A stretch of 64,000 bases of DNA from Candidatus Nomurabacteria bacterium (GTDB taxonomy: Bacteria > Patescibacteriota > Minisyncoccia > Phycocordibacterales > UBA9973): contig CALRAE010000002.1 in the NCBI GenBank assembly GCA_943350445.1, forward strand, positions 2,134-66,133. Reading direction: 5' to 3'. This document shows, piece by piece, positions 1,274 through 50,019 of the stretch (its first letter is position 1; every line of letters starts with the position of its first letter). The notes beneath the pieces were generated by a model. The model saw only the letters and a program-made list of their open reading frames with translations, had not been told where the DNA came from and searched no databases. The translations under genes were made by a program, and so were the position numbers.

Positions 1274-4267
1274 ATGAACAACTCCAAGAAAAAATTTGAG
1301 CAGGAGTATAAAAATTTAAACAAAGCACAAAAAGATGCCGTGGATAGTGTCGACGGTCCAGTCATGGTGGTGGCGGGTCCAGGTACTGGCAAGACGCAGA
1401 TCTTGGCATTACGTATAGCAAATATTTTAAACAAAACTGACTCCAAACCAGAAGATATATTGGCTTTGACTTTTACAAATGCTGGGGTTATATCAATGCG
1501 GGAACGTTTGCAGAAAATAATAGGTGATGCGGCATATCGTATAAATATTTTTACATTCCATTCTTTTTGTGAAAATACGATTAAAGAGCTCCCGTTTTAT
1601 TTTAAGAAATTTATTGGAGCGCGTGTATTAAATGATCTCGAGCGTATAGAAATCTTGGAAAAAATTATAAGAGCCAATAATTTTACTGAACTTACCACAT
1701 TTAATGACGAATTTTATTTCTTAAAAGATATTGTTAGAGCGATAAATAATATTAAAAAAGAAGGTTTGTCTCCAAAGCAGTTTGAAGAATCGATTCCAAG
1801 ATGGCGCAACATCTTACTTTCGCACGAAGATGTCTTTTATAAGAGGGATTATGGTGAATACAAAAAGGGTCAAATAAAACCTGCGGAAAAAGAAAAGATA
1901 GAGCACAAAATAGCTAAAGTGAATGAAATGGTCACGATTTTTACTCTCTATCAGAAAGAATTAGATAAGCTGGGAAGGTATGATTTTAGTGATATGATAT
2001 TGTCTGTCTTGGCTGAGTTGGAGGTAAATAAGAATCTTAAAGCTGACCTATCAGAGAAATTTCAGTATTTTTTGGTTGATGAACATCAAGATACGAATAG
2101 TGGACAGAATAGGCTAATTGAACTCTTGACAGACGCTCCACACTTAGAGGGTAAGGCCAATATTTTCGCAGTGGGGGATGAAAAGCAATCTATTTACCGT
2201 TTTCAGGGAGCGAGTCGAGAAACTTTTAGAAATTTTGAAAGTTTGTATAAAGATATTAAACACATAACTCTTTCAGAAAATTATCGTTCCACTCAAAATA
2301 TATTAGATGCAGCGACTTCTCTTATTAAGCATAATACAGAACTTGGTGATACAGAAAGACTAAATTCAAATCAAGAAAAAAATGACAAGGTTATGGTTCG
2401 TGAATTTTCTAATTACAAATTTGAGCTTCTTTTTTTAGCAGAAGATATAAAGAATAAAATCATCAAAGGCGTAAAGCCGAGCGACATAGCTGTGATTTAT
2501 CGGGCACATAAATATGTTTATGATATAAAATCTGTTTTCGATCACAGGCAGATACCTTATACAATTTTATCAAAGGGTAATGTATTGAATGATCCAAATA
2601 TTAGAAACCTAATCACCATTTTACGGGTTGTGCATAATCCGAACGACGAAGAATCTCTAGGTAAGGCCCTTTTTATAAATTTTTTAGGATTAGATGCATA
2701 TGATTCCGTACGCATTTTAGAGAAATTCCGTCGTATTCGTACTGATGGCAAGAAGCACATTTTTGCCATTATTGAGAATAAGAAAAATTTACAGGATACT
2801 GAAGTAGTACATGCAGGAGACTTTATTGCTTTTGCAGAACTTATTAAAAAATTAAAAATTGAATCTACTCAAGGAGATTTTCCGAATTTCTTCAAGTCTT
2901 TTCTGGAGAGTAGTGGTTATCTAAAAGAAATGCTAGGCGCTCTCGACGGGCAAGATCGATTATTAAAAATAGATAAACTTTTTGATGAGATCAAAAAACA
3001 AGCGGGTGAGAGAGCGGATTATGGGTTGTCTAATTTTATCTATTTTGTTGATGCGTTTCTGAAATATAATCTTGATGTTGAATCAAATGCACCAGAAATA
3101 GTTGAAGGTGTAAATTTAATGACTGCTCATGGTTCCAAAGGTCGTGAATTTGAACATGTGTATATCATAAATACCGTCCGGCGTGGCTGGGAGGGTAGTG
3201 GTTCTTCGAGTGCTATCGATCTGCCGATTGAGGAATATGAAGGAGATACTGAAGATGAAAGGCGTCTTTTTTATGTGGCTATAACTCGTGCCAAATATAA
3301 ACTCGATATTTCTTATTCTAATTCAGATAATGATGGTCGCCTCAATGAACCTTCAGAGTTTTTAGCTGAGATTGATGATGCTTATTTAGCTAAAGAAAAT
3401 ATGGTGCAATTTGAAGAAAAGAATTTAGGACAACTTTTTGATTTTATTTCCCCGAATAAGTCCTTAAAATCACTTTATCAAGCAGACTACTTGAGAGAAA
3501 TTTTCTTTCGTCGCACATTAAACGTTTCTGCTTTAAATAATTATCTATCTTGTCCATTAAGGTATTTTTATAAAAATTTATTACAGATTCCTTCGAGTTA
3601 TGAATCCAGACTTGAGTTTGGTAGCTCTATTCATGAATCCCTAGAAGAATTTTTTGCACATTCACGTGATGCAGGGGAAATTTTACCAAAGAAAGAATTA
3701 CTAAAAATATTTAATGAGCTTTTAAATAATAAATCTTTTACTGAAAAAGAAGCAAGTAAATTTAAGACAAGAGGTGAGGAATTGCTTTCCGAGTATTATG
3801 ATGAGCATGCATCAAGTTGGACACATAAAGTAGACCTAGAAAAATATATCAAGAGAGATTTTAAGACTGAACATGGGGAATCTATAACCATTAGTGGCAA
3901 AATAGACAAAATTGAATACTTGGAGGATCTGTTTGGTGGTAAGGTAAATATTATAGATTATAAAACAGGTAGGAGTTTTTCTGAGAAATCTAAAGAAGAA
4001 AAGAAAGATTATGAGAGGCAGATTGTTTTTTACCACCTACTTCTTGATGATTATGACGGTAATTTTAAGATAAATAAAAGCGTTTTAGATTTTGTGGAGA
4101 AAAACAAAAAAGGAAAATTTGAACAGCATTCATTCTTAGTTACAAAAGAAAACTTGGATGAGTTGAAAAGAGAAATAAACCAGTGTATACGAGAAGTCTT
4201 GTCTTTGGAATTTCTTAAAAAGGGTTGCGGGAAGCGTGATTGTGAATGGTGTAGTTTGAGCAAGTAG
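1274..4267 (+). CDS. UvrD/PcrA-family ATP-dependent DNA helicase fused to a C-terminal PD-(D/E)XK (RecB/AddA-like) nuclease domain
   Basis: Walker A VVAGPGTGKTQ. UvrD motifs (LVDEHQDTN, SIYRFQGA, TAHGSKGREF). C-terminal DYKTG...Y..Q..Y nuclease motifs and a terminal Cys cluster CGKRDCEWC. Confidence 0.7.
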   Translation: MNNSKKKFEQEYKNLNKAQKDAVDSVDGPVMVVAGPGTGKTQILALRIANILNKTDSKPEDILALTFTNAGVISMRERLQKIIGDAAYRINIFTFHSFCENTIKELPFYFKKFIGARVLNDLERIEILEKIIRANNFTELTTFNDEFYFLKDIVRAINNIKKEGLSPKQFEESIPRWRNILLSHEDVFYKRDYGEYKKGQIKPAEKEKIEHKIAKVNEMVTIFTLYQKELDKLGRYDFSDMILSVLAELEVNKNLKADLSEKFQYFLVDEHQDTNSGQNRLIELLTDAPHLEGKANIFAVGDEKQSIYRFQGASRETFRNFESLYKDIKHITLSENYRSTQNILDAATSLIKHNTELGDTERLNSNQEKNDKVMVREFSNYKFELLFLAEDIKNKIIKGVKPSDIAVIYRAHKYVYDIKSVFDHRQIPYTILSKGNVLNDPNIRNLITILRVVHNPNDEESLGKALFINFLGLDAYDSVRILEKFRRIRTDGKKHIFAIIENKKNLQDTEVVHAGDFIAFAELIKKLKIESTQGDFPNFFKSFLESSGYLKEMLGALDGQDRLLKIDKLFDEIKKQAGERADYGLSNFIYFVDAFLKYNLDVESNAPEIVEGVNLMTAHGSKGREFEHVYIINTVRRGWEGSGSSSAIDLPIEEYEGDTEDERRLFYVAITRAKYKLDISYSNSDNDGRLNEPSEFLAEIDDAYLAKENMVQFEEKNLGQLFDFISPNKSLKSLYQADYLREIFFRRTLNVSALNNYLSCPLRYFYKNLLQIPSSYESRLEFGSSIHESLEEFFAHSRDAGEILPKKELLKIFNELLNNKSFTEKEASKFKTRGEELLSEYYDEHASSWTHKVDLEKYIKRDFKTEHGESITISGKIDKIEYLEDLFGGKVNIIDYKTGRSFSEKSKEEKKDYERQIVFYHLLLDDYDGNFKINKSVLDFVEKNKKGKFEQHSFLVTKENLDELKREINQCIREVLSLEFLKKGCGKRDCEWCSLSK

Positions 4268-4304: not shown

Positions 4305-5348
4305 ATGTTCAAGAAAGTTAACACTAAATCCAAAGAAGAGCTTTTGCATGAATTACAGGAAGAAAACTTTCAGCGCAAAACCCTTTCATTTTATCGCTAT
4401 GTGAAGATTTCTGATCCTCTTGCCATGCGAAATAAGCTTTTTGATAAATTTGAAGAATTAAAGTGTTTGGGGAGAATTTACATTGCAGAAGAAGGTATAA
4501 ACGCTCAGATGAATGTGCCTGAACACAACTGGCAGGCTTTTGATAAATTTATACAAAGTATCGAGGAGTTTGCTGGAGTGCTGTACAAAATGGCAGTCGA
4601 AGAAAAGGGTGCATCCAGTTTCATAAAGCTTATAATTAAGGTTCGTCCGAAGATTGTTGCCGATGGACTCAATGATAAAACTTTCAATCCGGCGGATACA
4701 GGGGATTATACTACTGCTAAAGATGTAAATGATATGATCGATCGTGGGGTGACCGTGATAGATATGAGGAATTTTTATGAAGCAATGATTGGCCATTTTG
4801 AGGGTGCAAAAATAATGGATGTGGATACGTTTCGTGAACAACTCGGGAAAGTGCACGATATGTTTACAAAAAAGAAGGATGAGGAAGTTTTACTCTATTG
4901 TACTGGAGGTATTCGTTGTGAAAAAGCTTCTGCTTGGATGAAACACAATGGTTTCAAGAATGTGAAACATATCAAGGGCGGTATTATTGATTATGCACGT
5001 CAAGTGAAAGAGATGGGGTTGCAAAATAAATTTCGTGGCAGGAATTTCGTTTTTGATGAGAGACTTAGTGAAAAGGTTGGGGATGAGGTGATAGCTACTT
5101 GTCAGATTTGTGAAAAACTAAAGTCCGATGATTATATTCATTGTAAAAATTTGCTTTGCCATATTTTATTTATCTGCTGTCAAAATTGTACGAGCAAGTT
5201 GAAGGGTTATTGTTCAGGCTTGTGTATGCTCAGTGAGAAATTCCCAAAGAGATTGAATCAATTTATTTTCCGTAAAAATCTTCAGAAGCACGAAAATTAT
5301 TATAAAAAGAATTATAAGAAACTAAAAATAAATACGGGAGTTAGGTAG
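4305..5348 (+). CDS. trhO: Rhodanese-domain tRNA U34 hydroxylase TrhO/YceA (UPF0176) with a Cys-rich C-terminal tail
   Basis: N-terminal UPF0176 region (LSFYRYVKISDP...GRIYIAEEGINAQ). Rhodanese active-site loop CTGGIRCEKAS. Cys-rich C-terminus. Confidence 0.6.
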   Translation: MFKKVNTKSKEELLHELQEENFQRKTLSFYRYVKISDPLAMRNKLFDKFEELKCLGRIYIAEEGINAQMNVPEHNWQAFDKFIQSIEEFAGVLYKMAVEEKGASSFIKLIIKVRPKIVADGLNDKTFNPADTGDYTTAKDVNDMIDRGVTVIDMRNFYEAMIGHFEGAKIMDVDTFREQLGKVHDMFTKKKDEEVLLYCTGGIRCEKASAWMKHNGFKNVKHIKGGIIDYARQVKEMGLQNKFRGRNFVFDERLSEKVGDEVIATCQICEKLKSDDYIHCKNLLCHILFICCQNCTSKLKGYCSGLCMLSEKFPKRLNQFIFRKNLQKHENYYKKNYKKLKINTGVR

Positions 5349-45651: not shown

Positions 45652-45690
45652 GGTTACCACCCCTAGCCCCTCCTTGATTAAGGAGGGGAG
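45652..45690. repeat. Family B element, intergenic copy, abutting the tgt stop codon: GGTTACCACCCCtagCCCCTCCTTGattaAGGAGGGG
   Basis: Nearly identical to the copy at 45951..45999. Reverse orientation relative to the pheT/mnmA copies. Confidence 0.65.
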
Positions 45691-45767
45691 GACACGGGAG
45701 TTATCCCCACTTTTCCTTACCCGACATATATATTATTGATATAATGTAGATATTTCCGAGTAAAAAA

Positions 45768-48700
45768 GTGAAACAAAAAAATAAATTTTTTAGGGCATAT
45801 ATAAAAAGGTTTTCACTTGGACTCTTTGTCTTTGCTTTTTTTGTTTTTCTACCTACTTCTAGTGTATTTGCAGCAGCTACAAAAGACTCATTAATGAATG
45901 CTTTTAAGAGTTATGTAACTGTACTTACTACACCTGTTAACAATCAAGTAGTTACCACCACCCCACCTCCGGCACCCCTCCTTGATCAAGGAGGGGAAAG
46001 GGGTCCTAATCCTGTTTCTATTCCTGTAACACCACCACCCCCTTCGTCAAGCTCAGGGCAGGAAATAGTCTACGTCACACCACAACCTACAATAAACGAA
46101 GCAACCCTTCTTTCTGCTTTAAGAAACCTTCTCTCAAAAAAAGAAATTGCTAACAAATTACGTGGGTCACAAGGAGCACAAGGTATCCAAGGCCTTCAGG
46201 GTCCACAAGGAGCATCAGTTACACCAGCACCAAATCCTATCTCTTATCTACCTGTTCATATCTCATACCCTAATCCTTCTGTAAACTTCTCTGGTGGTGC
46301 TTCTGCAAACATAGCTAATCTATCTTCAAACATTCTCACTGCTACTACTTCTAATATTACTACTTTGAATGTGGCTGGAACTTCTACTCTTGCAGGAACT
46401 CTAAATGTCACTGGTGCCGTCACTCTTCCGTCTTCTGGAAGTTTAACTTCGCCTTTGGTTATTGGTTCTACATCTGCTAATGGCACTTTGACCTTAGAAG
46501 GTAACAACACTACAGGCAATACCGCAACTAATGCAAACTTAATATTCAAGGTTGGTAATAATGCAGCAACTACTGCGATGACTATTTTGAATAATGGCAA
46601 TGTGGGGGTGGGGACGACGACTCCAGGAAGATTTGTCGATTTGTTTTATACGGAGCCAGGTGCAACTCGTGCTTACAATTACCTACGTTTGACTGCTAAT
46701 AGTGCTGTGGGAGCTCATCATGGTACATCTGTCATCGAAGGATTTTATAAGGATAGTGGAAACGGTAATAGTTTTACTCACAGCCAGATCGCATTGGAGG
46801 GGACATCAGTCGGCAATGGTGCTGTAAATTCTATTGGTGAAATCTTGTTTTTGACAAAGTCAGATACAGGTAGCGCGTCAGCATTGCCTACTGAAAAGAT
46901 GCGTGTGACTAGTGATGGAAAATTACTTATTGGAACCAATCGAAATGGTACTGAGGATGGTGATTTGAGTTTCTATGGTATTTCCAATAGACTCATTTCT
47001 ATAGGATCAAATCCAAGTACCAATGTGGAAGGTAAAGACTTAACTATTAGGGCAGGAAATCCTTACCCGTCATCCACCAATCTAACAGGAGGGACTCTCA
47101 ATCTTTCAGGTGGAAAATCATCTGGCACAGGGACATCACAAATTCAATTCCAGACTGCTACCGCAGGTTCTACAGGAAACTCTGTTGTGACCCCAACAAC
47201 TAAAATGACAATTTTAGGTTCCGGCAACGTGGGGATTGGGACGACGAGTCCAGGTCTCCCACTCCAAGTTGTTGGTCACGTAAATGAATTTATTGCAGAT
47301 TTTTTATATAGCTCCTCTGGCTCAGGCGTTGCAGTTGGTGGTGGGGTTAATGGCACAACCGCATGGGTAGCGAGTGATTATCTTGGTGCGACTGAACCAA
47401 AACTACATTTAGCAACCTGGTCTAATCGTGCTAATGCAAATGGTATCACTATTGATACCTCTGGCAACGTCGGGATCGGGACGACGAATCCTAGTATCGG
47501 TTCGTGGGGTAAGGCTTTGACCATTCTTAATAACGGCTTGAACACTACCGCAGCCGCACTTGAAATTGCTTCTTTTGGACTCACAGCAGGAGACGGAGAA
47601 AGCGCTCTTAGTTTTGTAAATGGTGTTGATCTAGGTAATCGTTGGGAGGTGGGACGAATTCAGGCAATTCGTGGTGCTACCGACAATGGTTCAGGTCATA
47701 TTGCGCTATCTACACGAGTGAGTGCAACAGGAGGAGGTTTGGCTGAAGTGATGCGCTTGACTGACGATGGCAAAGTCGGTATCGGCGACACTACTCCAGA
47801 TTATAAATTAGACATAGAGACAGATGTTGCTTCGTATGTTGCCAACTTCTTCAATGATGGCAATCTTGCCACCCGTAGCGGTATCCTTATCCAAGGAGGC
47901 TTAGATGATCACACTGCAGCCGGACCATCCACTCTCATTGGTTTCCAAGATGGTGACGGTGGTGCTGTCGGATCAATCACTTTTGGTTCATCTGCCACAG
48001 CATACAACACTACATCAGACCAAAGATTAAAGAATTTAGTAAACGAAAATACTACTTCATCTCTCAATATCTTAAATCAAATAAAAATTCATGATTTCAC
48101 ATGGAAAGAAGATGCTAACCATAATCTATACACTGGAATCTTCGCTCAAGAGCTCTATGATGTTTATCCTCACGCAATTACTAAACCAATCAATGATGCA
48201 GACAACTGGATGGTGGATTATTCTAAACTCACCCCTGTAATGATCGCATCTATCCAAGAACTAGATCTAAACTTAAATAGTATCGCGGGCACTATCACTC
48301 CACTTGCTGGCTCAGCCAATGAATCTTTCGTGAATGCTTTCTTCGCAAACATTTTTTCCAAGGTTGATAATTGGATGGCGGATCGGGCGAATGGGATAGG
48401 AGATTTCTTTGCAGACAAAGTACATACAAAGCAAATCTGTGTTGCGAAAGCTGATGGCACAGAATTTTGTGCAGATGGTGACCAACTTCAAGCTATGGCA
48501 GGGGGATCAGGAACACCTCCAGCGCCAACCCCTACTCCAGCTCCAGTCCCCGCACCATCATCCGACACCACTCCACCAGTCATCACCCTCACAGGTGAAT
48601 CTACAATAACTTTAAACGTGGGAGACACATATACTGAACAAGGAGCCACAGCCACAGATAATGTAGACACAGGAGTAGCTGTCATAATCAGTGGTTCTGT

Positions 48701-48800
48701 AGATACATCTGTTGCAGGCACATACACTATCACTTATAATGCCACTGACACAGCAGGGAATAATGCGATAGAGGTGGCGAGGAGTGTAGTGGTTCAATAA
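45768..48800 (+). CDS. Large secreted fibre protein (GTG start). Collagen-like G-x-y triplets, repeated NVGIGTT(S/N)P beta-helix-like motifs, a peptidase-S74-type intramolecular chaperone domain, a Pro/Thr linker and a C-terminal Ig-like (DUF5011-type) domain
   Basis: Signal/TM N-terminus. GSQGAQGIQGLQGPQGAS. At least 4 NVGIGTTxP repeats. S-D-x-R-L-K motif TSDQRLKNL followed by ..GIFAQELYDVYPHAI..VDYSKLTPVMIASIQEL. (PT)n linker. C-terminus ITLTGESTITLNVGDTYTEQGATATDNVD..VAGTYTITYNATDTAGN. Confidence 0.6.
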   Translation: MKQKNKFFRAYIKRFSLGLFVFAFFVFLPTSSVFAAATKDSLMNAFKSYVTVLTTPVNNQVVTTTPPPAPLLDQGGERGPNPVSIPVTPPPPSSSSGQEIVYVTPQPTINEATLLSALRNLLSKKEIANKLRGSQGAQGIQGLQGPQGASVTPAPNPISYLPVHISYPNPSVNFSGGASANIANLSSNILTATTSNITTLNVAGTSTLAGTLNVTGAVTLPSSGSLTSPLVIGSTSANGTLTLEGNNTTGNTATNANLIFKVGNNAATTAMTILNNGNVGVGTTTPGRFVDLFYTEPGATRAYNYLRLTANSAVGAHHGTSVIEGFYKDSGNGNSFTHSQIALEGTSVGNGAVNSIGEILFLTKSDTGSASALPTEKMRVTSDGKLLIGTNRNGTEDGDLSFYGISNRLISIGSNPSTNVEGKDLTIRAGNPYPSSTNLTGGTLNLSGGKSSGTGTSQIQFQTATAGSTGNSVVTPTTKMTILGSGNVGIGTTSPGLPLQVVGHVNEFIADFLYSSSGSGVAVGGGVNGTTAWVASDYLGATEPKLHLATWSNRANANGITIDTSGNVGIGTTNPSIGSWGKALTILNNGLNTTAAALEIASFGLTAGDGESALSFVNGVDLGNRWEVGRIQAIRGATDNGSGHIALSTRVSATGGGLAEVMRLTDDGKVGIGDTTPDYKLDIETDVASYVANFFNDGNLATRSGILIQGGLDDHTAAGPSTLIGFQDGDGGAVGSITFGSSATAYNTTSDQRLKNLVNENTTSSLNILNQIKIHDFTWKEDANHNLYTGIFAQELYDVYPHAITKPINDADNWMVDYSKLTPVMIASIQELDLNLNSIAGTITPLAGSANESFVNAFFANIFSKVDNWMADRANGIGDFFADKVHTKQICVAKADGTEFCADGDQLQAMAGGSGTPPAPTPTPAPVPAPSSDTTPPVITLTGESTITLNVGDTYTEQGATATDNVDTGVAVIISGSVDTSVAGTYTITYNATDTAGNNAIEVARSVVVQ
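45951..45999. repeat. Family B element, copy in frame inside the fibre gene (encodes ..TTPPPAPLLDQGGERG..)
   Basis: GTTACCACCaCCCCAcctccggcaCCCCTCCTTGatcaAGGAGGGG, a close match to 45652..45690. Confidence 0.65.
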
Positions 48801-49325: not shown

Positions 49326-49535
49326 CACGACGGTGCGAGGAGCGGGTGGCGAAATTTTTCAACAGAAAAATATTTGCGACTACGGGTGGAGTTTTACTAA
49401 CTGAAACTTTTTGAAATATAACTTTTCTTTGGTACGGATTTTTCAATATAACCTTAGCCTTAAAAAATATTGAATTTCTGTGCGCGTCAGCCTACGAAAC
49501 CCCGCGAAAAGTTATATTTCGAAAAGTTTCTCACA

Positions 49536-49565
49536 AAAAGAAAATCCCCCGCTTTTGGCAGGGGA
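49536..49565 (-). terminator. Rho-independent terminator of rnpB
   Basis: Minus-strand read: CCCCUGC-caaaa-GCGGGGG followed by AUUUUCUUUUU. Confidence 0.55.
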
Positions 49566-49576
49566 CTTTCATTTTG

Positions 49577-50019
49577 TTGTAGGTGTCTATAAGCCGAATT
49601 TTGTCCCAATTTTGTTCACCACAGGTGATTCAAAATTGAGGACCCTGAGGATTTGTCGAAGGGTTCCCTCGACGTGGCTCGGGATGCTCAATTTTGTAAT
49701 TGCCTATGGCAAACAAAATTGGCAGATAACAATTTATCTAGGTCTAAAATTACTCTTAGACTCAAGCGATTCTTCCAAGCTTGCGCTTGGACACGATCTT
49801 GCACAGGGGTAAGGATTTAGCCGTTTCACTCTGATGTTACCACCAGACTATTCCATGGATTGCTCGATGGAACCCTAGCATCTCTGCATCAGCGTCTCTG
49901 CTCGCACCTATATATCACTATATGTGGGCGTTACCCACTACCTTTCTCCCTGATAAATCAGGGCTGTGTTCGGACTTTCCTCCCTATGAAATCATAGAGT
50001 AGCTATCCGACACCTACGC
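49577..50019 (-). ncRNA. rnpB: RNase P RNA (bacterial type)
   Basis: Minus-strand read has a P1 helix (GUAGGUGUC at the 5' end, GACACCUAC at the 3' end). It has P4 5' strand GGAGGAAAGUCCG, then ..GGUAACGCC.., then GGUGCGAGCAGAGACGC (P10-12-like), ..UGGUAACA..GGCUAAAUCC.. and P4 3' strand ACAAAAUUCGGCUUAUAG. TSS position fits the promoter. Confidence 0.8.

Follow-up and report, generated by a model that had tools for sequence, protein, structure and literature searches.

A patescibacterial fibre protein with an internal Peptidase_S74 chaperone domain is a sequence and fold homologue of the mosaic adhesive trimer fibres of Bdellovibrio

Mosaic adhesive trimer (MAT) fibres are chromosomally encoded, signal-peptide-bearing proteins that form intertwined trimers on the surface of the predator Bdellovibrio bacteriovorus (Caulton et al., 2024; PMC10769870). 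Thirteen of the 21 Bdellovibrio MATs end in a Peptidase_S74 (S74) domain with an SDxxxK motif, Bd3182 self-cleaves at the catalytic serine, a cleavage that is blocked by the substitution S782A, and one member binds prey glycans; the trimeric beta-helix structure, surface location, self-cleavage and glycan binding of MATs have been shown experimentally (PMC10769870). In the available portion of the supplement of that study, relatives are named in Omnitrophica, Micavibrio, Uabimicrobium and others, with Patescibacteria not among them. In the Patescibacteria themselves attachment and host recognition are largely unexplained, most study having gone to type IV pili, and "surface proteins predicted to be adhesins" remain uncharacterised (PMC12206443, PMC11665869). 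Here we describe a fibre gene at positions 45768..48800 (+) of a 64,000-nucleotide stretch of a Candidatus Nomurabacteria genome, hereafter the window (GenBank assembly GCA_943350445.1, contig CALRAE010000002.1, positions 2,134 to 66,133), whose product is a sequence and fold homologue of the S74-type MAT fibres. We propose, with a probability of roughly 0.6, that it is a secreted, trimeric, self-cleaving MAT-type adhesive fibre of the cell surface and not part of a phage; its trimer formation, self-cleavage, surface retention, adhesive role and binding target are predicted by analogy with its relatives.

The relationship to the MAT fibres is carried by the shaft, an all-beta region at amino acids (aa) ~225-749 (46440..48014, +) whose modules each open with ..M.I...G(N/K)VG(I/V)G..P.... 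A profile of aa 470-760 matched the PDB entries of Bd2133 (E 5e-26), Bd1334 (2e-16), Bd3182 (4e-15) and Bd2439 (1e-10), and the Bdellovibrio MAT fibres, at E values from 5e-26 to 4e-7, were the sole significant PDB matches of this shaft profile. In the profile alignments the shaft motif ..ERMRI.ssGNVGIGTtsP...L.V aligns with a repeated motif of the Bdellovibrio fibres, and the (N/K)VG(I/V)G..P repeats probably correspond to the MAT capping loop V-G-G/N-pi-x-x-P-x-x-x-L (PMC10769870), though the register is off by one residue. An earlier reading of the same DNA, here called the first-pass annotation, had announced at least four NVGIGTT(S/N)P repeats; four copies are indeed present, those at aa 487 and 567 being exact and those at aa 278 and 669 being variants. 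They are, all on the + strand, NVGVGTTTP (aa 278-286, 46599..46625), NVGIGTTSP (aa 487-495, 47226..47252), which aligns with ERMRIDTSGNLGLGTAAP of Bd2133, NVGIGTTNP (aa 567-575, 47466..47492) and KVGIGDTTP (aa 669-677, 47772..47798). The fourth copy opens the last shaft module, which is 76% identical to that of the closest homologue and, if the predicted cleavage occurs, would become the fibre tip after maturation. A monomer model of the shaft is likewise all-beta, with a predicted local distance difference test score (pLDDT) of 65.8, and this low-confidence model was used solely for the identity of its best fold matches in the PDB, of which the top 13 were all MAT fibres and the next the T5 L-shaped fibre. 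The template-modelling scores (TM-scores) of these matches were low and their root-mean-square deviations large, an effect of the extended and intertwined course of MAT chains. When the whole protein was compared with the PDB by phmmer it matched just an Ig-like domain, the chaperone and MAT structures being reached via profiles.

The shaft is followed by an intramolecular chaperone auto-processing (ICA, Peptidase_S74) domain at aa 750-842 (48015..48293, +). The S74 domain with SDQRLK named in the first-pass annotation proved significant in the Pfam search, Peptidase_S74 (PF13884) matching aa 750-803 with 35.5 bits against a cutoff of 22 (E 1.2e-8). SDQRLK itself occupies aa 750-755 (48015-48032, +) and provides the predicted catalytic residues Ser750 and Lys755, so that self-cleavage is predicted, from the characterised domains of this type, immediately before Ser750. 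Both residues are invariant in alignments of 15 and of 32 sequences of the C-terminal region, which argues that catalysis is under selection in this close sub-family. A C-terminal profile matched solved ICA domains at E values from 2e-12 to 2e-3, among them the phage fibres 8jov (2e-12) and 6f45 (4e-12), MyRF (7dc3, 3e-10), the T5 L-shaped fibre (8hqz, 9e-6) and the phi29-type neck appendage (3gud), and the S-D-x-x-x-K positions line up with those of 8jov, 6f45, 7dc3 and 8hqz. An AlphaFold model of aa 700-1010 reached a mean pLDDT of 80.9, with values of 80-96 across the chaperone domain, and shows the ICA fold of a beta segment and a long C-terminal helix, which Foldseek matched to the MyRF ICA (7dc3, E 9.5e-4, TMt 0.56). 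The model also matched 259 viral proteins at E<=1e-3, those at the top of the ranking being annotated as ICA or S74; these fold matches span ~130-180 residues and never the whole C-terminal architecture. PHROGs tail-fibre families match the ICA region as well, with a best E of 9e-16. The first-pass description of a protein built like a phage tail fibre therefore holds for the tail-fibre-like build and for a genuine S74 domain, but its nearest relatives among described proteins are the MAT fibres of Bdellovibrio. The ICA domain is not the C-terminal end here, since ~170 residues follow it; a terminal position is typical of such domains without defining them, and MyRF is also an exception.

The first of the added segments is a module of ~80 aa (aa 834-913, 48267..48506, +) without a Pfam match, modelled as two helices, a beta-hairpin and a short helix. 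C891 and C901, the only cysteines of the protein, lie on opposite strands of the modelled hairpin, and we infer a C891-C901 disulfide; in the alignment of the module two F, one N and both Cys are invariant and a W nearly so. Pfam gave no match for aa 804-938, and no PDB sequence matched the module in a profile search. It is followed by the Pro/Thr-rich linker TPPAPTPTPAPVPAPSS (aa 916-932, 48513..48563, +; model pLDDT <60) and by a C-terminal Ig-like domain at aa ~933-1010 (48564..48797, +), and this PT linker with a DUF5011-type Ig-like domain after the chaperone is as the first-pass annotation had described it: Bact_surface_Ig-like (PF16403), labelled DUF5011 in one NCBI hit name, matched aa 939-1009 with 66 bits against a cutoff of 27. 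The domain also matched PDB 2kpn (E 2e-4), was modelled with a pLDDT of ~90-96 and has BT2262, 2kpn, Big_3 and InlK among its fold matches.

The profile of the post-chaperone module alone retrieved 1,763 cluster representatives at E<=1e-3, and 661 at 1e-10, among 1.84 billion, a representative standing for a protein cluster at 50% identity. Among the matches listed, the C-terminus mostly follows within ~60-250 residues of the end of the module, and the longest of these proteins has 6,101 aa. In the 175 members examined a median of 99 aa follows the module, this tail being mostly rich in P/T/S/E/G/A/D; a homologous Ig-like domain terminates 42 of them, while many have after the module just a low-complexity tail without a binding domain. 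An S-x-x-x-x-K motif precedes the module in 123 of 143 members and is not recognisable in the other 20. A genome scan with a 6-sequence alignment of the module, one genome per species being scanned, found 67 loci, nearly all in metagenome-assembled genomes (MAGs) of Patescibacteria (Nomura-, Zambryski-, Kaiser-, Vogel- and Harrisonbacteria, Paceibacterota, Minisyncoccia and MAGs labelled Saccharibacteria), with 2-4 loci per species genome. A scan of viral contigs gave no relative of the module, in a single pass that relied on two short peptide patterns. The first-pass annotation had called an Ig-like domain after S74 unusual, which is true in comparison with phages and Bdellovibrio, yet the addition of further domains after S74 is a recurrent patescibacterial design, seen repeatedly in a large, mainly patescibacterial sub-family.

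The ends of these proteins vary. P0018 and P0080-type tails carry a repeated Cys motif ..ETCSDGIQNQDETG(I/V)DTGGVC.. after the post-chaperone module, and P0010, P0018 and P0112 have Ala-rich helical repeats where others have the Ig-like domain; since the tails vary between Cys repeats, Ala-rich repeats and Ig, the C-terminal add-on is therefore modular. At the other end, some giant members of 1,388-3,206 aa (L035 1799-10588, L052 944-10564, L053 3308-10804 and L043 4100-8266) are without an N-terminal signal peptide and open with a helix-turn-helix-like segment, ..KKYISxKEASxLTGYSRDYIGQLVRxNK.., which is strange in what is presumed to be a surface fibre; for P0093 the annotation reads excisionase-type DNA binding (PF12728).

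The gene is an open reading frame (ORF) of 1,010 aa, stop codon included in the coordinates given above, and an identical protein is recorded in public assemblies (P0001). Its GTG lines up with the start codon ATG of a 2,060-aa protein from a Candidatus Nomurabacteria MAG (L002), the closest homologue, in agreement with the chromosomal ORF and start codon of the first-pass annotation. The signal or transmembrane segment that was claimed there is, when read by rule from the sequence, a Sec-type signal peptide at aa 1-35/37 (45768..45878, +), with a K/R-rich n-region, the hydrophobic LGLFVFAFFVFL and a cleavage site between VFA and AA or between AAA and T; the L002 homologue has an equal architecture, with cleavage between ASA and A at the matching position, so that the A-x-A site is conserved. 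Then come a Pro-rich linker, the helix NEATLLSALRNLLSKKEIANKLR (aa 110-132), six G-x-y triplets (GSQ GAQ GIQ GLQ GPQ GAS; aa 133-150, the two together at 46095..46217, +), as also noted at first pass, and NF(S/T)GG..ANL.., an order kept in several homologues. The helix-plus-triplets arrangement is kept in L002, P0002, P0003, P0100 and P0105, and we propose that it forms an N-terminal trimerisation segment. The Pfam Collagen family (PF01391) had no match in the fibre protein even at E<=1, and the six triplets are best described as a short collagen-like segment, not as a PF01391 repeat.

The genomic setting of the gene is that of a cellular protein. TGT is encoded upstream and DUF192 downstream, and RNase P RNA (rnpB) follows on the opposite strand, which are the neighbours that the first-pass annotation had listed, and its statement that no phage genes are adjacent extends to the window as a whole, which holds no prophage. 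All identifiable genes of the 64 kb are housekeeping genes, including an addA-like helicase gene, pheS/T, gyrB, thrS, nusB, rnc, smc, the RNase R gene, trmD, rpoB, rpoC, dnaG, rpoD, tsf, rpsB, mreB, mreC, tgt, typA and mltG, and no phage structural, baseplate, sheath, tube, portal or terminase family was found among the scanned ORFs. The TGT and MreB of the window are 72-85% identical to counterparts in MAGs labelled Paceibacterota and "bacterium", which, together with the best fibre homologue in a Candidatus Nomurabacteria MAG, assigns the organism to the Nomurabacteria/Paceibacteria group of the Patescibacteria. Fibre genes in an mreB-mreC-tgt...DUF192 neighbourhood also occur in L003, L016, L024 and L035, and in L041 a fibre gene lies near DUF192; the fibres at this recurrent locus measure 1,010-2,929 aa. 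Between the genomes that share the locus TGT is 72-84% identical, whereas the fibres are 35-41% identical and solely over the C-terminal module. Identity with the L002 homologue is 51% over the first 227 aa and 76% over the last 345 aa, the promoter region and the signal peptide are also conserved, and the middle part, about twice as long in L002, is essentially unalignable apart from a weak similarity at the level of repeats. In the flanks of 19 related loci (124 proteins), MurJ, LepA, GatA-type amidase, TGT, RF-1, ABC transporters and other secreted proteins are the commonest families, a group that includes no phage structural family. The conserved housekeeping locus with its divergent fibres, the mosaic conservation and the non-phage flanks are the pattern of a cellular, fast-diversifying surface-protein family and not of a prophage remnant.

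Previous work on the characterised relatives suggests how such a protein might operate. Sec would export it by its N-terminal signal peptide, and three chains would then associate, helped at the N-terminus by the helix and the short collagen-like segment and at the C-terminus by the ICA domain, which would template an intertwined trimeric beta-helix as it does in those relatives. After trimer formation the Ser750/Lys755 dyad would cut just before Ser750, leaving a mature fibre of aa ~36-749 with the last beta-helix module (aa ~669-749) at its end, and the 261-aa C-terminal fragment with the chaperone, the Cys-hairpin, the PT linker and the Ig-like domain would be shed or kept as a removable cap. 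The fibre would project from the cell and bind a surface structure of another cell, in the way that Bdellovibrio MATs bind to prey glycans.

The first-pass annotation had left the choice between a domesticated fibre or adhesin and a tailocin or prophage remnant. The adhesin is favoured because the shaft is homologous to the adhesive MAT fibres of Bdellovibrio, and a tail fibre left in the chromosome by a prophage, a tailocin or another phage-derived particle is very improbable. Such an origin might be read from the PHROGs tail-fibre matches and from the database names of relatives ("tail fiber domain-containing protein" or "Phage tail fiber-like protein"), but the PHROGs matches are limited to the ICA domain while the shaft matches cellular MAT fibres, and the Sec signal peptide is not needed by virion fibres, which are assembled in the cytoplasm. 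Neither the scanned ORFs of the window nor the commonest families at the 19 related loci include a phage structural family, fibre genes of other genomes lie in an equal housekeeping neighbourhood, and the viral-contig scan with its two peptide patterns returned no relative of the post-chaperone module. Several observations nevertheless weigh against the adhesive fibre that we prefer. Since ~170 residues follow the chaperone, the discarding of a conserved Ig-like domain is hard to rationalise, and conservation towards the closest homologue is highest over the C-terminal 345 aa, where a fast-evolving receptor-binding tip would show the reverse. The shaft has been modelled solely as a monomer and with low confidence. 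By description the N-terminus looks unlike the anchor domain of Bdellovibrio MATs, and no means of retention on the cell after removal of the signal peptide is evident. The organism may or may not live attached to a host, free patescibacterial cells being common (PMC11665869).

The strong conservation of the Ig-like domain and post-chaperone module in the L002 homologue would instead suit the main rival explanation, which we consider unlikely, namely that the chaperone is a permanent trimerisation knot, either uncleaved or cleaved but still bound, and that three Ig-like domains on flexible PT linkers are the distal binding tips. The equal Ig-like ending of 42 of the 175 sub-family members is in line with it, an Ig fold of this kind is characteristic of surface proteins and adhesins of bacteria (InlK, Rib, SraP, BT2262), and the 20 of 143 members without a recognisable S-x-x-x-x-K suggest that the module can exist without an obvious catalytic site. 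However, the invariant Ser750 and Lys755 argue for selected catalysis, all characterised S74 domains with the dyad cleave (endosialidase, T5 fibre, MyRF, Bd3182; PMC10769870), and the many members that end in a low-complexity tail would have no binding domain to present. It is also quite unlikely that the protein is a fibre of the cell envelope or matrix without partner recognition (for spacing, biofilm or an S-layer-like coat), or a tailspike-like enzyme that degrades polysaccharides. Beta-helical S74 proteins do include endosialidases, and one PHROG match is to a "hyaluronidase" family, but this match is confined to the chaperone region (aa 740-833) and Pfam and NCBIfam gave no catalytic domain. 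PF16403 is present in many surface proteins of which the ligand is unknown, and related loci often adjoin other secreted proteins with CarboxypepD_reg-like domains, both of which would fit this explanation; the sole homologues of known function are nevertheless the adhesive MAT fibres, and the size and sequence of the fibres vary strongly among syntenic loci, which better suits recognition molecules.

The analysis links a widespread family (1,763 clusters for the post-chaperone module alone) to the one group of cellular fibres with experimentally established adhesion, trimeric structure and self-cleavage, and shows a second cellular lineage that uses the phage-type chaperone-protease for secreted fibres; it also defines a conserved domain without a Pfam match. 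The several fibre paralogues in very small genomes are candidate host-range determinants, and the fibre of the window is a promising candidate for a means of attachment to other cells. A broader and rather doubtful extension, which we offer tentatively, is that Patescibacteria possess a large undescribed branch of the MATs as a repertoire for partner or host recognition. A conserved disulfide-hairpin module and variable end domains (Ig-like and others) would there have been joined to the ICA domain, and cleavage would release or reposition a second functional trimer. Under that extension the second trimer might be, for instance, a removable cap that masks the fibre tip until deployment, or a shed lectin-like decoy.

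The DNA upstream of the gene is partly conserved. A motif, GTTATCCCCACTTTTC (45700..45715, +), is near-identical upstream of the fibre genes of the window, L002 (~4520-4570) and L069 (~100-160), and the intergenic DNA around it differs among the three. In these three genomes it precedes the fibre gene ~20 nucleotides (nt) upstream of an extended -10-like TGATATAAT (45737..45745, +), which was read from the sequence, is conserved in L002 and ends 22 nt before the GTG; the motif may serve in regulation or as a promoter-upstream site. As it lacks a -35 match, TGATATAAT is not among the promoters that the scan listed. The distance from the -10 to the start codon is shorter in L002, and there is no clear Shine-Dalgarno sequence; as the start codon lies only ~22 nt past the -10-like TGATATAAT, the leader of the fibre mRNA may be very short or absent.

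The gene also contains, as the first-pass annotation reported, a palindromic element. It is the perfect 22-nt palindrome CCCCTCCTTGATCAAGGAGGGG at 45975-45996, in frame over codons 70-76 (PLLDQGG) in the Pro-rich N-terminal linker, and a second copy of the same 22-mer lies at 45667-45688, between tgt and the fibre gene, 16 nt past the tgt stop; by chance no copies are expected in the window. The core of the element, CACCCCTCCTTRATYAAGGAGGGGA, is GC-rich and often flanked by ACCACCCC...GGGGTGGT. The palindrome folds as a strong hairpin in which a Shine-Dalgarno-like AAGGAGG is paired with CCUCCUU. The copy inside the gene lies within a ~60-nt island whose DNA is strongly conserved in the L069 gene: its third positions are identical in 11 of 11 aligned codons, while the flanks of the island barely align and the L069 protein (P0100) is a distant homologue with 28% aa identity. 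L069 has two copies (397-414 and 3679-3696), one of them inside another ORF, whereas the closest relative L002 has the element at neither site. The 25-mer core was found in 60 metagenome contigs (L071-L130), many from groundwater. Within long ORFs the element is read in at least two frames, ..TTPPxAPLL(N/D)QGGE.. or ..HPSLIKEG.., and it also occurs in apparently non-coding DNA; copies read in the PLL(N/D)QGGE frame lie mostly within Pro-rich linkers, and in L123 a copy lies in the linker directly after the post-chaperone module of another fibre protein. Rickettsia palindromic elements are known to be inserted in frame into genes, and the present element recalls them. An invertible promoter switch formed by the two copies that flank the 5' end of the gene was considered and rejected, as no recombinase was identified in the window and the element is a dispersed repeat found in many contexts.

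Some further features of the locus deserve mention. CarboxypepD_reg-like is the commonest family among the fibre neighbours (8 of the 124). A protein of ~470 aa with a conserved N-terminus, ..KKxGKNW(R/K)KFWKLG.EDFNTQ(Y/F)F.., is encoded near or next to fibre genes (L003 10735-12177, L016 11968-13398, L024 14700-16091, L041 2826-4232), directly before DUF192 in L016, L024 and L041, and is absent from the window. Directly upstream of fibre genes of 2,000-2,100 aa, a conserved gene pair (L016 1860-4242 and L024 2185-4611) encodes a secreted protein of ~675 aa and a small membrane protein of ~121 aa, which may be accessory or partner genes. In the window, rnpB (class A, 49574-50018, -) was recovered in E-value mode over the full model with 88.3 bits (E 3.5e-27) and was missed at the Rfam gathering score of 100. 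A 110-aa ORF at 49480-49812 (+) overlaps it on the opposite strand and is probably spurious, and a terminator-like hairpin (49570-49540, -) lies just beyond its 3' end. Weak matches on both strands to a long-hairpin model (plant miRNA precursor) in the ~130 nt between DUF192 and rnpB (49400-49535) suggest that a long hairpin or inverted repeat lies there. At 21300-24100 the G+C content reaches its maximum for the window (0.47 against ~0.38); any ORFs in this stretch are weak or overlapping, and a check for RNA genes gave nothing from Rfam at E<=0.01. Two further candidates were discarded, a target of a diversity-generating retroelement, as the protein has no C-type lectin domain and the window no reverse transcriptase, and a sortase/LPXTG anchor, as there is no such motif at the C-terminus.

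Among the known systems that share the chaperone, the phage fibres (K1F endosialidase 3GW6, T5 L-shaped fibre pb1 4UW8/8HQZ and phi29-type neck appendage 3GUD) have in common with the window fibre the ICA/Peptidase_S74 domain with its Ser-Lys dyad, which in the phages sits on beta-helical trimeric fibres. They are, however, phage-encoded parts of the virion, cytoplasmic, without a signal peptide and with the ICA domain at the extreme C-terminus, whereas the window fibre is a secreted protein of a cellular gene with an internal ICA domain. In this last respect it resembles MyRF (7DC3), whose ICA domain was matched by fold and by profile and which is the only other well-studied case with further domains after the ICA, where cleavage yields two functional pieces. 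MyRF, on the other hand, is a membrane-bound transcription factor, its C-terminal piece being a membrane anchor and its released piece a DNA-binding trimer, and the window fibre has no transmembrane segment after the ICA.

The closest comparison remains that with the Bdellovibrio MATs. Both are chromosomal proteins of ~1,000 aa that are secreted with a signal peptide, have homologous shafts and an S74 domain with SDxxxK, and occur as several paralogues per genome; Bdellovibrio lives on other bacteria, and the organism of the window may do so. Where a MAT has at its C-terminus either S74 or a swapped-in adhesive tip domain, the window fibre has S74 and, unusually, an Ig-like domain as well: the S74 MATs of Bdellovibrio end at S74, and here the ~80-aa Cys-hairpin module, the PT linker and the Ig-like domain are added. 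Its N-terminus (Pro-rich, helix, triplets), compared by description only, looks unlike the ~130-aa beta-rich domain of all 21 Bdellovibrio MATs, and Bdellovibrio is a Gram-negative predator, whereas the host of the window gene is presumably a monoderm-like Patescibacterium. Automatic annotation has already given the names "tail fiber domain-containing" or "DUF5011 domain-containing protein" to homologues from Nomurabacteria, Parcubacteria and Dojkabacteria with S74 and with or without PF16403 (for example MCC7160317.1, KKW10390.1 and MDP2704973.1), and searches of the accessible literature found no description of S74 or tail-fibre-type proteins of Patescibacteria, of the post-ICA module or of a link to MATs. 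Therefore, while the domain content was known through such annotation and S74-type cellular fibres were known in Bdellovibrio, what is new is the link of the patescibacterial proteins to the MAT fibres in sequence and fold, the post-chaperone module as a defined family, with its size, and the recurrent mreBC-tgt-DUF192 locus.

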